Shown here piece after piece: positions 17,494-35,561 of a stretch of 64,000 nucleotides of DNA. This DNA is from SAR202 cluster bacterium AG-426-M11 (GTDB taxonomy: Bacteria; Chloroflexota; Dehalococcoidia; Lucifugimonadales; UBA826). The position numbers were made by a program, and so were the translations under genes. The notes under the pieces were generated by a model. It was not told the DNA's origin. It saw only the letters and a list, made by a program, of their open reading frames with translations, and did not search any database. Numbering within the stretch: the stretch's first letter is position 1; every line of letters starts with the position of its first letter. The stretch is from contig QCNV01000003.1 of NCBI GenBank assembly GCA_003213095.1, positions 3,470 to 67,469 on the forward strand. The letters are read 5' to 3'.

Positions 17494-17814
17494 ATGTATA
17501 GAATTCGACGAGTATACAAAACACAACCCGGAGTTGCTTCTGACGTAGCAAAACTAGTATACGAACAAGCAAAAATTTACAGAGATGCTGGACATAGAGG
17601 TGATTTTACAGTTTCATATAATGGTTACACTCTTCCCGGCGAACAAAATATAGTAATACTGGAATGGCAAGATGAATCCATCCAATCCCCTAGTCGAGCA
17701 GGAAATAAAGTTCCACCCGAAGCAATTGAAGTCGCTAAAAAATATAGACCATTATTGGAAAGCCAGCATATAGAATTTTATGAAATGGTAGATCCCAAAA
17801 CTATGGGTGACTGA
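17494..17814 (+). CDS. small hypothetical protein (106 aa)
   Basis: Operonic, with its stop overlapping the next start (ATGA). No motif recognised. Confidence 0.5.
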   Translation: MYRIRRVYKTQPGVASDVAKLVYEQAKIYRDAGHRGDFTVSYNGYTLPGEQNIVILEWQDESIQSPSRAGNKVPPEAIEVAKKYRPLLESQHIEFYEMVDPKTMGD

Positions 17815-19493: not shown

Positions 19494-20467
19494 CTCATCA
19501 GTTCTGGGTTCAAACATGCTAGCATTTTTCCTTCCGTAAAGAAGTGGATAATATTATCTGCTGCCATGATTCCCATATTTCGTAAAGTAGCTGCACTAGC
19601 GCTAGAAATATGCGGAGTAATAATCACATTTTCCATTGAAACTAAAGGATCATCATGTGCAATAGGTTCAGGATCAGTAACATCTAAAGCAGCTCCTGAA
19701 ATTTGATGGGTTTTTAGTGCATTTGTTAAAGCAACTTGATCAATAGTTCCACCTCTAGAAGTGTTAATCAAAAATGAATCTGATCTCATCAAATCTAGTT
19801 CACGTTTACCAATAATTTTTTTTGTATCATCATTCAGAGGCACATGAATTGAAACATAATCAGATTCTTGCAACATCTCATCCAAACTTGATTTCCAAAT
19901 TAATCCTAGTTGATTTTCAAGATCAATCTTACGGGAACGAGAATGATAAATGATTTTCATATTGAACCCGCTTGCTCTTTTCGCAACTGCACTACCTATC
20001 ATACCCACACCCAAAAGACCTAAAGTTTTTCCATGTACATCAGTTCCTAAATATGGAGTTTGATCAAAAACTTTCCAATTACCTTTTAACACGTTGTGAT
20101 GAGAATATGAGATTCTTCTCCCTAAAGTCAAAATCAGCCCCATAGCAAAATCTGCACAAGATTCATGTAAAATTCCAGGGGTATTTCCAATCAAAATCCC
20201 CTTTTCTGTAGCAGATGATAAATCTATATTGTCATATCCTACAGCTCTAGTAGATACAATTTTTAATTTTTTGGCAGCGTTGATCACATCAAAATCTATG
20301 GGATCATTTGCTTCAATCATAAAAGCATCACATTCAACAGATTTTTCTATAAGCACTGATTTAGGTGGAGGCGTAGTTTCATTCCAAACCTCAACTTGAA
20401 AAAAACTTTTAAGCTTATCTATAGCATCAGGAACTATTGGCCTACTGACAAAAACTTTTTTATTCAA
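19490..20467 (-). CDS. D-2-hydroxyacid dehydrogenase (glyoxylate/hydroxypyruvate reductase-like)
   Basis: GKTLGLLGVGMIGSAVAKR NAD motif, plus SRGG..D and ITPHISS catalytic segments. Confidence 0.85.
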   Translation of the reverse strand: MNKKVFVSRPIVPDAIDKLKSFFQVEVWNETTPPPKSVLIEKSVECDAFMIEANDPIDFDVINAAKKLKIVSTRAVGYDNIDLSSATEKGILIGNTPGILHESCADFAMGLILTLGRRISYSHHNVLKGNWKVFDQTPYLGTDVHGKTLGLLGVGMIGSAVAKRASGFNMKIIYHSRSRKIDLENQLGLIWKSSLDEMLQESDYVSIHVPLNDDTKKIIGKRELDLMRSDSFLINTSRGGTIDQVALTNALKTHQISGAALDVTDPEPIAHDDPLVSMENVIITPHISSASAATLRNMGIMAADNIIHFFTEGKMLACLNPELMS

Positions 20468-20478
20468 ATTAATTACAC

Positions 20479-20961
20479 CTACTCTCTAAATTTTTCATAA
20501 ACTTCTTCTTTTGTTGGAACACTATGCTTGATAAAAATATCTTTGCCATTTTTGTCAAAAAACACAAATGTTGGAATCATTTTAGTAGATATTAAGTCAC
20601 TAATATGATTCCCCACAACAGAGTGAACATCAACTCTATATAACTTGTATTCATTTCTCAATTCAGACTCTAACCTATTCACGATAGGATTCAACGTTAA
20701 GCACCCCACTCAATAATCAGAATACATATAAAGAAGATAAGGTGAACCTGAAGAGCGAATATTTTCAAAACTTTGTACAGTTGACATGTTTTCATTCGAA
20801 TTTTTTTGAATTGACTGGAATAAAACCATAACAATTAAACTTGCAAGAACAAAAACAAGTATGTATTTTGATGAAAAAAATCTTAACCCTATTAACGAAA
20901 AGACAATTAACAAAAATGCAGTTGCAAAAATTAAAGAATACTGATTAATAAGGTTATACAA
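20479..20961 (-). CDS. membrane-anchored thioredoxin-fold protein with in-frame TGA (20710..20712) at the first CxxC position; candidate selenoprotein (U-V-G-C)
   Basis: Track ORFs 20710..20961 and 20479..20709 are contiguous in one frame, separated only by TGA: ...LLYMYSDY-TGA-VGCLTLNPIV...MIPTFVFFDKNG. This aligns with Trx WCGPC and the cis-Pro PT motif. Two N-terminal TM helices. Confidence 0.6.
20674..20688 (-). other. short hairpin downstream of the in-frame UGA (possible bacterial SECIS core)
   Basis: CCUAU-CGUGA-AUAGG is a 5-bp stem whose loop starts 27 nt after the UGA and contains G/U. It is weak on its own. Confidence 0.3.
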
Positions 20962-21096
20962 ACTACTCTCATTGGTTATAACTACAATTTTAGTCTATAT
21001 TTCAGAAAATTTTGTGTCAATCAACCCATCTGTTAACATACCAAATCTCAGAACATCTCTGAGAATCAATTAATTAAATTATAGAAGGATTTAACC

Positions 21097-30093: not shown

Positions 30094-30105
30094 CAAGGAG
30101 TGCAA

Positions 30106-30483
30106 ATGTCTGAACAATTTGACCGCGGATTTGAAATGAGGAAAAAAGTTCTAGGAGATGACTATGTCAATCAATCATTTGCCAATGCTTCTGAATTTGA
30201 TAAACCTTTTCAAGAATTTGTAACAGAATCTGCATGGGGAGAAGTGTGGACTAGGGATGAATTGGATAATAAAACAAAAAGTATAATTACAATGTCAGTA
30301 TTACTTGCTCTAAGAGCAGAAAATGAAATAGCACTTCATACAAGAGGTGCAATAAATAATGGGGTTTCAGCTGAAGAATTGAGAGCAATTGCCATCCATG
30401 CTTCAGTATATGCTGGAGTTCCTTCTGCAATCTCTGGAATGAAAATAATCAAAAAAGTATTACAAGAAATGGGTAAAATTTAA
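30106..30483 (+). CDS. carboxymuconolactone decarboxylase-family protein
   Basis: FQEFVTESAWGEVWTRDELDNKTKSIITMSVLLAL...EIALHTRGAINNGVS.EELRAIAIHASVYAGVP matches the CMD/PcaC-like pattern. AAGGAG SD before ATG 30106. Confidence 0.75.
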   Translation: MSEQFDRGFEMRKKVLGDDYVNQSFANASEFDKPFQEFVTESAWGEVWTRDELDNKTKSIITMSVLLALRAENEIALHTRGAINNGVSAEELRAIAIHASVYAGVPSAISGMKIIKKVLQEMGKI

Positions 30484-30725
30484 TGGATAAAATCAAATTC
30501 TACGGAACCATGTGGTGCAGTGATTGCCACAGATCAAAAGAATTTCTGGATTCTCACAAAATAGACTATGAATACACTGATGTAGATGAAAATCCTGAAT
30601 TTGCAAAATTGATAACTCAAATAAACAATGGTTTGCAAAGAGTACCTACAATCATATTTCCAGACGGATCTATTTTGGTTGAACCTACCAATAAAGAACT
30701 TTCAGAAAAATTAGGCATTTCCTAA
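30483..30725 (+). CDS. glutaredoxin/NrdH-like small redoxin (CSDC)
   Basis: KFYGTMWCSDCHRSKEFLD...VPTIIFPDG shows a Grx fold with CxxC and cis-Pro. Confidence 0.75.
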   Translation: MDKIKFYGTMWCSDCHRSKEFLDSHKIDYEYTDVDENPEFAKLITQINNGLQRVPTIIFPDGSILVEPTNKELSEKLGIS

Positions 30726-34743: not shown

Positions 34744-34766
34744 GAATTAAACCGTATTTGGAGAAA

Positions 34767-35414
34767 ATGATGAAAAGACCATTATCTAAAAGGCAGCAAG
34801 AAATGCTGGCTTACATTAAAAACTTTATGCAAACTAATAACTACCCTCCTACTGTTAGGGATATACAAAATGGCTGTCAAATCAGTTCCACATCAGTGGT
34901 CGACTACAATCTCCAAATCCTACAAAGAGAGGGGCACCTAGCAAGAAAAAGAGATGTATCAAGAGGACTAGAGTTATTAGGCGAAGCAGCCAGTCATTCA
35001 TTGAGAAATTTAGTCAATGTTCCCATTCTAGGAAACATTGCTGCAGGAGAACCATTGGCTTTACAGGGAACGGGGCCATGGAATAATGAAGATTTTGATA
35101 ATGTAGATATTCCTCCTTTTTTAACCAAAAATAAAGAAAATGTATTTGGACTTCGTGTAAAAGGTGAATCCATGATTGATGCTCTAGTCGGAGACGGAGA
35201 TCTCGTCTTGCTAGAACCAATTACTAAACCTAATAACGGAGACATGGTCGCTGCTTGGCTAGAAGATAGAGAGGAAGCTACATTAAAACATTTCTATTTA
35301 GAAGGAAACAAAGTTAGGCTTGTGCCTGCAAATTCTATGATGCAACCAATTACAGTTTCAGCTTCTAATGTAGCTGTAAAAGGTAGAGTTGTAGGTGTAA
35401 TGAGGACCATGTGA
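34767..35414 (+). CDS. lexA: LexA repressor
   Basis: N-terminal winged-helix (LSKRQQEMLAYIKNF...GYPPTVRDI) and a C-terminal S24 peptidase with GESM (Ser) and VKGRVVGV (Lys). ATG 34767/34770 follows GGAG. Confidence 0.9.
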   Translation: MMKRPLSKRQQEMLAYIKNFMQTNNYPPTVRDIQNGCQISSTSVVDYNLQILQREGHLARKRDVSRGLELLGEAASHSLRNLVNVPILGNIAAGEPLALQGTGPWNNEDFDNVDIPPFLTKNKENVFGLRVKGESMIDALVGDGDLVLLEPITKPNNGDMVAAWLEDREEATLKHFYLEGNKVRLVPANSMMQPITVSASNVAVKGRVVGVMRTM

Positions 35415-35475: not shown

Positions 35476-35561
35476 GCCGAAGTGGCGGAATGGTAGACGC
35501 GCCGGTCTCAAAAACCGGTGAGGTAACACTCGTGTGAGTTCGAGTCTCACCTTCGGCACCA
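35476..35561 (+). tRNA. tRNA-Leu (anticodon CAA), encoded CCA end
   Basis: Acceptor GCCGAAG/CTTCGGC, anticodon stem CCGGT/ACCGG with loop CTCAAAA, long variable arm, T-arm GTGAG-TTCGAGT-CTCAC, discriminator A, CCA. Confidence 0.9.

Follow-up and report, generated by a model that had tools for sequence, protein, structure and literature searches.

A probable membrane-anchored thioredoxin-like selenoprotein gene with a covarying SECIS-like hairpin in a SAR202 contig

A 64,000-nt stretch of contig QCNV01000003.1 from SAR202 cluster bacterium AG-426-M11 (hereafter, the window; G+C content 35%) was analysed for a gene interrupted by an in-frame TGA. SAR202 is a clade within the Dehalococcoidia, a class of the phylum Chloroflexota. 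On the minus strand, the frame 20961..20479 runs for 160 codons, with the TGA at 20712..20710 as its sole interruption. The open reading frames (ORFs) that flank this codon are 20961..20710 (83 aa, TTG start) and 20709..20479 (76 aa); as an earlier reading of this DNA (hereafter, the original prediction) had pointed out, they are in frame with each other and nothing but the TGA stands between them. Joined, they read ...SPYLLYMYSDY-TGA-VGCLTLNPIV...KMIPTFVFFDKNG, and the peptide across the proposed selenocysteine (Sec) position is SSGSPYLLYMYSDY-U-VGCLTLNPIVNR. The evidence collected below makes it very probable that this frame is one gene for a membrane-anchored thioredoxin-like selenoprotein, in which UGA is read as Sec. 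The features of the locus, including a hairpin that resembles a Sec insertion sequence (SECIS), are listed in Table 1.

Table 1 Features of the proposed selenoprotein locus in the window.
Feature	Position	Strand	Remarks
Proposed complete selenoprotein gene, 160 codons plus TAG stop	20479..20961	-	TTG start 20961..20959; homologues of ~160 aa cover both halves
In-frame TGA, proposed Sec codon (U84), first position of the U-V-G-C redox motif	20710..20712	-	
TGC codon (C87), resolving Cys of UxxC	20701..20703	-	Column invariant in alignment A1
SECIS-like hairpin	20672..20690	-	Within the codons for N-P-I-V-N-R-L; assessed by covariation, energies, loop consensus and a Cys-form control
Predicted transmembrane helix 1, residues 10-26	20884..20934	-	Preceded by the conserved N-terminal N-Q-Y-S motif
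Predicted transmembrane helix 2, residues 34-51	20809..20862	-	Lys/Arg-rich loop RFFSSKY before the helix
CCA codon (P130), cis-Pro of the thioredoxin fold (IPT)	20572..20574	-	Invariant in A1; PDB alignments agree
Promoter-like TTGACA-17-TAGACT, ~30 nt upstream of the start codon	20992..21020	-	Weak positional evidence only

When the stop was replaced by Cys, the resulting 160-aa protein matched the Pfam family Thioredoxin (PF00085) with 33.9 bits against a cutoff of 23.5. The match spans residues 63–140 and therefore crosses the TGA, and neither half alone passes the Pfam cutoff. Alignment of a family profile to solved thioredoxins in PDB put the TGA at the first Cys of WCGPC and P130 at the cis-Pro, in agreement with the original prediction, which had assigned the TGA to the N-terminal redox Cys with the cis-Pro at the expected distance. 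Both by this score and by C87 and P130, which are invariant in alignment A1, the product has the thioredoxin fold. More specific models were not matched. The TrxA equivalog (TIGR01068) scored 33 bits against a cutoff of 96.8, the motif here being U-V-G-C and the protein having two transmembrane helices. The NCBIfam models for DsbD (in its gamma-domain region), TlpA, ResA and DsbE gave weak matches, every score lying far under its cutoff (for DsbD, 17.8–35.6 bits against 330). None of the curated NCBIfam selenoprotein models (e.g., SaoT, HUIPC-motif protein, GOS_C, TsoB) reached its cutoff, TsoB being the only one listed at E ≤ 0.01, with 16–21 bits against 805.

An exhaustive HMMER search over 1.84 billion representatives returned 157 matches, most of them ~160 aa long with an N-Q-Y-S-type motif, two hydrophobic helices and a thioredoxin domain. 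The 130 matches of at most 260 aa were aligned using MAFFT. At the TGA column, 84 of these representatives have Cys, 18 have 'W', five have Ser and one has Tyr, and in 21 the ORF begins 1–10 residues past the TGA position; none of the 130 holds Sec there. Both 'W' cases examined in DNA proved to be TGA translated with table 4. In P0017, which is 42% identical to the query, the DNA encodes SNF-TGA-VAC and the gene's own stop is a second TGA. Cys and TGA, the two states for which the original prediction had proposed to look among homologues, thus both occur at exactly this column, and alignment A1 is concordant with such a Sec/Cys pairing.

The homologues also bear on whether translation could stop at the UGA and re-initiate at the adjacent GTG, giving an 83-residue membrane peptide and a 76-residue soluble fragment. 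GTG is a possible start that is used by gene callers, and it is the codon after the TGA in the window. In the family, however, the next codon is mostly CTG (18) or ATT (15), both poor starts, so re-initiation is not conserved. The 76-residue piece would also lack both strand 1 of the thioredoxin fold and its attacking residue, and the Cys-form homologues are single proteins of ~160 aa. We consider re-initiation very unlikely.

Species-representative genomes were scanned for TGA forms at the DNA level, using the degenerate pattern Y-S-[DN]-[YF]-TGA-x-[GA]-C...P-x-V-[DN]-x-L, which matched once in the window and never in shuffles. A total of 63 TGA-bearing genes were recovered at 61 loci in 61 genomes, almost all of Chloroflexota. 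The carriers belong to Dehalococcoidia (many of them SAR202), Anaerolineae, Chloroflexia, Ardenticatenaceae and Promineifilaceae, with three Myxococcota and one Terriglobia in addition. All 63 matches translate to conserved sequence on either side of the TGA. In the six usable pairs, including that of the window with locus L049, dN/dS was 0.10–0.27 upstream and 0.06–0.22 downstream of the TGA, every value being below 0.3, and both halves are thus under purifying selection. The original prediction had held that a lack of conservation after the TGA would count against it; the downstream half is conserved in the 63 genes, with dN/dS of 0.06–0.27 overall. The TGA-form members outside Chloroflexota (L018, L039 and L040 from Myxococcota, and L052 from Terriglobia) have intact hairpins, which suggests horizontal transfer between Sec-decoding lineages.

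These patterns are not those of a pseudogene or split gene, in which a nonsense mutation in the catalytic Cys codon would have left the two ORFs as decaying remnants. A change of TGC or TGT to TGA takes a single base, the public annotation has two separate hypothetical proteins, and at two of the loci (L029 and L055) the sequence after the TGA looks degraded. On the other hand, the TGA is kept with intact flanks in 63 genes of 61 species, dN/dS is well under 1 on either side of it, and the covarying hairpin described below goes with the TGA forms. Decay of the gene is therefore extremely unlikely in our view. As for the two exceptional loci, L029 (2258–2310) and L055 (5100–5152) retain the TGA and the hairpin, but the family sequence gives out a short way downstream or upstream; frameshifted pseudogenes or errors of assembly may account for them.

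Other assemblies were compared at the TGA. The 76-aa fragment, which begins one codon past the TGA, is indexed in 173 collection blocks. We read 22 contigs, and all ten syntenic loci that were fetched carry the fragment; the TGA was seen at the base level in both contigs inspected for it (L001 and L012). The window is 99.9% identical to L007, 99.8% identical to contig JBSXAB010000027.1 of GCA_054229165.1 (the locus is also in the bin with ERZ841439 NODE_12), and 91% identical to L049 (JAKUTY010000006.1, from the SAR202 metagenome-assembled genome ALOHA_A2.5_119). Sequencing error is excluded.

The possibility that TGA has been reassigned throughout the genome (code 4 or 25), which we weighed together with sequencing or assembly error, has a practically negligible probability. 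Some public gene calls do give W at this position, as for a table-4 organism. Against this, TGA terminates 11 of the 65 long ORFs in the window, and no other gene with an in-frame TGA was found in the 64 kb. The 11 ORFs include 34758..35414 and 17494..17814, the two genes (the first as lexA, ending at 35412..35414) that the original prediction had cited when it called global reassignment unlikely. Among the family genes themselves, 24 of 63 end in TGA, and an internal and a terminal TGA also stand together in the L012 gene. In such genes the first UGA must be read through and the second must terminate, which points to context-dependent recoding and not to a changed code. With respect to error, the base is identical in every assembly inspected in DNA, besides the presence of the fragment in the many collection blocks mentioned above.

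The rest of the window was searched for similar cases. Of the ORF pairs (≥30 aa) that share a frame and are connected by a single TGA, 20479..20961 is the only one in the window that is not an antisense shadow. No other selenoprotein gene was found in the 64 kb, the scans for TGA-joined ORFs and for read-through yielding only antisense shadows and nonsense sequence. The read-through frame of 34758..35414, the ORF called lexA above, runs for 40 codons and enters the adjacent tRNA-Leu(CAA) gene (35476..35561), the only tRNA in the window. At ~30100..30720 (L002 1–583), a CMD/AhpD-like gene (PF02627) adjoins a glutaredoxin gene (PF00462); both families often contain Sec in marine bacteria, and neither gene has an in-frame TGA here.

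Covariation analysis of the sequence after the TGA was based on alignment A3, which contains 64 TGA-form sequences and is gap-free from the TGA onward. One helix was singled out by RNAalifold and a direct pair count. It joins columns 32–38 with columns 44–50 around a 5-nt loop, and corresponds to 20690..20672 in the window. There, the core stem CCUAU (20688..20684) pairs with AUAGG (20678..20674) around the loop CGUGA (20683..20679); past a U.U mismatch, the stem continues with an outer A-U pair (20690/20672). The original prediction had noticed the small hairpin 20688..20674, with its loop 27 nt after the UGA; this hairpin is present as described, its loop starting at the 27th nucleotide past the UGA (spacing 26 nt), and it is the conserved core of a 7-pair stem in the family.

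Clear covariation is seen at three of the seven pairs in A3: pair 36-46 (U-A in 33 sequences, C-G in 21 and G-C in 8), pair 37-45 (G-C in 35 and A-U in 25) and pair 33-49 (G-C in 36, A-U in 15 and G-U in 10). Overall, 81% of the cells pair, a share that drops to 46% or less if the 3' partner is shifted by 1–3 columns, and the observed covariation score was reached by none of 500 shuffles. The covarying pairs connect position 3 of the Pro codon with position 1 of the Arg/Gly codon, and position 1 of the codon that follows Pro with position 3 of the Asp codon. For example, in one close clade of Anaerolineae, CCC-AUC-GUG-GAU-GGG (P-I-V-D-G) alternates with CCU-GUC-GUG-GAC-AGG (P-V-V-D-R), and in L012 a change from Pro to Ser (CCU to UCU) is matched by one from AGG to AGA. 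Since A-U and G-C versions of the stem occur in both low-GC and high-GC genomes, base composition does not explain the pattern.

The hairpin largely distinguishes TGA forms from Cys forms. As a control, we used seven Cys-form homologues that have the same protein motif and for which DNA was obtained (L074–L078, L081 and L083). Of the 64 TGA forms, 63 can form at least six of the seven pairs, compared with only two of these seven Cys forms (Fisher p = 9e-6), indicating that the structure tracks the TGA and not the amino-acid motif. The hairpin to which the original prediction had drawn attention thus carries compensatory changes, and the hairpin itself is mostly absent from the Cys forms. One Cys-form homologue, at L075 (296–670; QSPYCLGC...KPAVDRL), still forms six of the seven pairs, and may be a recent Sec-to-Cys conversion in which the SECIS has not yet been lost.

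The hairpin was also compared with the published model of the bacterial SECIS (bSECIS), which has an apical loop of 3–9 nt, an upper stem of 4–16 bp, a UGA-to-loop spacing of 16–37 nt, a G within the first two positions of the loop and then a G or U, and an energy of at most -7.5 kcal/mol (PMC13188914, Fig. 2). In geometry, the window agrees with this model (loop of 5 nt, stem of 5 bp plus the outer pair, G-U at loop positions 2–3, spacing of 26 nt), as does the family stem of 5–7 bp. The loop consensus in the family is NGUNG/A, most commonly CGUGG. The median energy of the hairpin alone is -7.9 kcal/mol in the family, and 35 of 64 members reach -7.5 kcal/mol.

Several observations weigh against reading the locus as a selenoprotein gene with a SECIS. 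The hairpin in the window is short, as the original prediction had conceded, and weak; taken alone it has -2.0 kcal/mol, the weakest value in the family. The predicted fold of the 76-nt region 20640..20715 is no more stable than those of shuffled sequences (z = +1.21), and at minimum energy it contains a hairpin other than the SECIS-like one. No Rfam match was found, either in the window at the gathering threshold or in 20450..21000 at E ≤ 10. The shuffle control of the covariation ignores relatedness, the Cys-form control has only seven members, and neither set is phylogenetically independent. Moreover, the amino acids P, V, D/N and L around the hairpin were prescribed by the search pattern, although the covarying bases were left free. 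Lastly, ARAGORN found no tRNA-Sec in the window and 60 loci, and tblastn with E. coli SelA, SelB and SelD found no selA, selB or selD homologue in 714 kb; both results were expected, and the sequence covered only part of this genome.

The minimum free energy of the window sequence is -7.2 kcal/mol over 60 nt and -8.0 kcal/mol over 76 nt, with a different fold. The alternative stem in the minimum-energy fold of 20640..20715, GUGGGGU/AUCCUAU, was rejected as a candidate; it is not conserved in the family alignment.

Support for a Sec pathway in the lineage comes indirectly from the literature. BSepDB lists Dehalococcoidia bacterium UBA1141 among the species with the Sec pathway, with 49 selenoprotein genes (PMC13326102, Table 2), and the family carrier L027 is a contig of this bacterium. 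A tRNA-Sec of the 8/4 type is reported from Chloroflexi (PMC5389517), and an early survey recorded three selenoprotein families in this phylum (PMC1794560, Table 2). At L056 (2741–2825, minus strand), ARAGORN reported an 85-nt 'tRNA-???' with a two-base anticodon, overlapping the N-terminal coding part of the family gene; this is probably a false positive.

The UGA might also be decoded as a residue other than Sec, either as Cys via the Sec pathway at low selenium, or as Trp or Cys through hairpin-stimulated read-through by a near-cognate or suppressor tRNA. The inserted residue is predicted here from sequence, selenium is low in the open ocean, and unusual tRNAs with UCA-type anticodons occur in some bacteria (PMC5389517). 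However, the hairpin fits a SelB-type SECIS in its loop G-U, spacing and size (PMC13188914, Fig. 2), the position is that of the nucleophilic Cys of CxxC, a classic site of Sec, and the carrier UBA1141 is on record with the Sec pathway and its 49 selenoproteins (PMC13326102). We therefore consider recoding to another residue unlikely.

Given decoding of the UGA as Sec, the gene would yield a 160-residue product with an NQYS N-terminus, two transmembrane helices with a cytoplasmic loop rich in Lys and Arg between them, and a thioredoxin domain containing U84-V-G-C87. During translation, the hairpin 26 nt downstream of the UGA, with G-U at loop positions 2–3, would act as a bacterial SECIS and recruit SelB with Sec-tRNA(Sec), so that Sec insertion in this genome would be SelB-dependent. 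This SECIS would lie within the stretch of codons that specifies the conserved (K/N)-P-x-V-(D/N)-(R/G)-L. The mature protein would sit in the membrane with its thioredoxin domain outside, where it would work as a thiol/selenol-disulfide oxidoreductase whose attacking nucleophile is Sec.

The predicted topology rests on the charge distribution. The two N-terminal transmembrane helices of the original prediction correspond to two hydrophobic segments of the sequence. Across 53 sequences, Lys plus Arg per residue amounts to 0.31 in the loop between the helices, 0.04 in the N-terminal tail and 0.09 after the second helix. By the positive-inside rule, this Lys/Arg-rich loop should be cytoplasmic, and the N-terminus and the thioredoxin domain should lie outside. 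The rule thus concurs with the extracytoplasmic, membrane-tethered placement suggested originally, and the thioredoxin domain probably faces out of the cytoplasm. Tandem TGA-bearing paralogues, ~600 bp apart, are present at L017 (227–902, minus strand) and L047 (5434–6093, plus strand), and another such tandem is represented by L061 (7591–7643) and L032 (195–247), two stretches of one contig. The first tandem paralogue is anchored by two helices, as is usual in the family. In the second, a lipoprotein-type signal ...LMISILGCGEAS replaces the helices, and a long linker rich in Asn, Ser and Asp precedes the thioredoxin domain. The lipoprotein-type signal in the L017 and L047 paralogue fits an extracytoplasmic role. 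We conclude that the protein is probably an outward-facing thiol/selenol-disulfide oxidoreductase.

No conserved redox partner was found among the neighbours of the family loci, neither a CcdA/DsbD-type gene nor a cytochrome c maturation gene. The neighbours are clade-specific only, namely a PF01676-type metalloenzyme, an ORF that is possibly flavin-reductase-like, and a 2-hydroxyacid dehydrogenase. In the window, the 2-hydroxyacid dehydrogenase is the next gene and starts 11 nt past the stop of the selenoprotein gene, with no terminator-like site between the two. Promoter-like sites in the region, including the one in Table 1, are no more numerous than in shuffles. In 12 Anaerolineae-type TGA-form loci (L014 1616–2758 and 11 others), a same-strand gene lies directly downstream at a median of 215 nt, and resembles the PF01676 gene beside the Cys forms at L076 (1520–2437) and L083 (1332–1773). 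PF01676 is the Metalloenzyme family, phosphopentomutase/alkaline-phosphatase-like. The possibly flavin-reductase-like ORF, so named from reading its sequence, occurs within ~1.3 kb in 17 loci. A gene for an RND transporter of ~1037 aa (ACR_tran) is found at L003 (5575–8688) and is uncalled in the population contig L008 (5336–8698), where two small ORFs stand instead; either the gene is disrupted in L008 or this stretch is poorly assembled.

The gene is mis-annotated wherever it was examined, as two short hypothetical proteins, as fragments, or with Trp from table-4 calls. In the public gene calls it is split into an 83-aa and a 76-aa 'hypothetical protein'. A word-indexed protein search returned one 90% cluster of 69 members, all the species' own, which are either fragments of 67–77 aa or calls of 116–160 aa with W at the TGA position. 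Some cluster members are named 'hypothetical protein [SAR202 cluster bacterium]' by NCBI, whose entries include 'hypothetical proteins' of 71–72 aa that start at an internal Met codon. Public calls in this family (P0001, P0012, P0016–P0025 and others) have Trp at the active site in 18 cluster representatives, and a further 21 representatives begin just past the TGA. Since the family falls outside every curated NCBIfam model, it goes effectively unseen in the genomes of SAR202 and other Chloroflexota.

In the literature searched, we found no paper that pairs SAR202 with selenoproteins; those that mention both SAR202 and selenocysteine concern other subjects, judging by their titles. Our findings indicate that SAR202 lineages decode Sec, and suggest that SAR202 uses it in a protein with an outward-facing redox domain. 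More tentatively, with somewhat less than even confidence, we propose that these genes form a distinct, uncurated and systematically mis-annotated family of exported selenoproteins across Chloroflexota, defined by the NQYS motif, the two-helix anchor, an outward U-x-[GA]-C domain and a SECIS in the codons for K-P-x-V-D-(R/G)-L. If so, SAR202 would place Sec chemistry outside the cytoplasm. The SECIS pairs force coupled synonymous and amino-acid changes, in which Pro CCU, CCC and CCG go with Arg AGG, Gly GGG and Arg CGG, respectively, and the family is thus a clear instance of a protein sequence constrained by the structure of its RNA. The mechanism is a known one, since among bacterial selenoproteins the UxxC thioredoxin-fold kind is the commonest. 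What the locus chiefly offers is a corrected annotation, a connection to SAR202 and clean covariation in the SECIS, the kind of selenoprotein itself being familiar and unsurprising.

Among characterized proteins, the classical cytoplasmic thioredoxin TrxA (TIGR01068) is the best match in Pfam, NCBIfam and PDB, and its active-site and cis-Pro positions align with those of the SAR202 protein. Unlike TrxA, the SAR202 protein is without WCGPC, is membrane-anchored, and probably has its domain outside the cell. The DsbD gamma domain, TlpA, ResA and DsbE/CcmG likewise have a thioredoxin-fold domain at the outer face of the membrane, the topology of the SAR202 protein being predicted from its sequence. 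Many family members have a C-V-A-C type motif, which matches that of the DsbD gamma domain. The anchor, however, is a two-helix hairpin, in contrast to the single helix or DsbD core of these extracytoplasmic oxidoreductases.

The closest known systems are UxxC thioredoxin-fold selenoproteins, which dominate marine surveys. In the marine GOS data they comprise 'Trx-like 1' (COG0526; 321 sequences), 'Trx-like 2' (cd02953, DsbD-gamma type) and 'Trx-like 3' (cd02950, TxlA type) (PMC2398784, Table 2), and 'thioredoxin-like' and 'distant homolog of thioredoxin-like' families are listed from Tara data (PMC9402790). A Sec-containing thioredoxin under PF00085 is also among the closest systems (PMC13188914, table). 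The present gene may well belong within one of the GOS or Tara thioredoxin-like groups. Its family shares with these closest systems a thioredoxin fold with Sec at the first position of UxxC, many Cys homologues, a SECIS directly downstream within the coding sequence, and a marine source. It differs from them in its fixed plan of NQYS, two transmembrane helices and thioredoxin domain, in its motif U-[VIL]-[GA]-C, and in being nearly confined to Chloroflexota.

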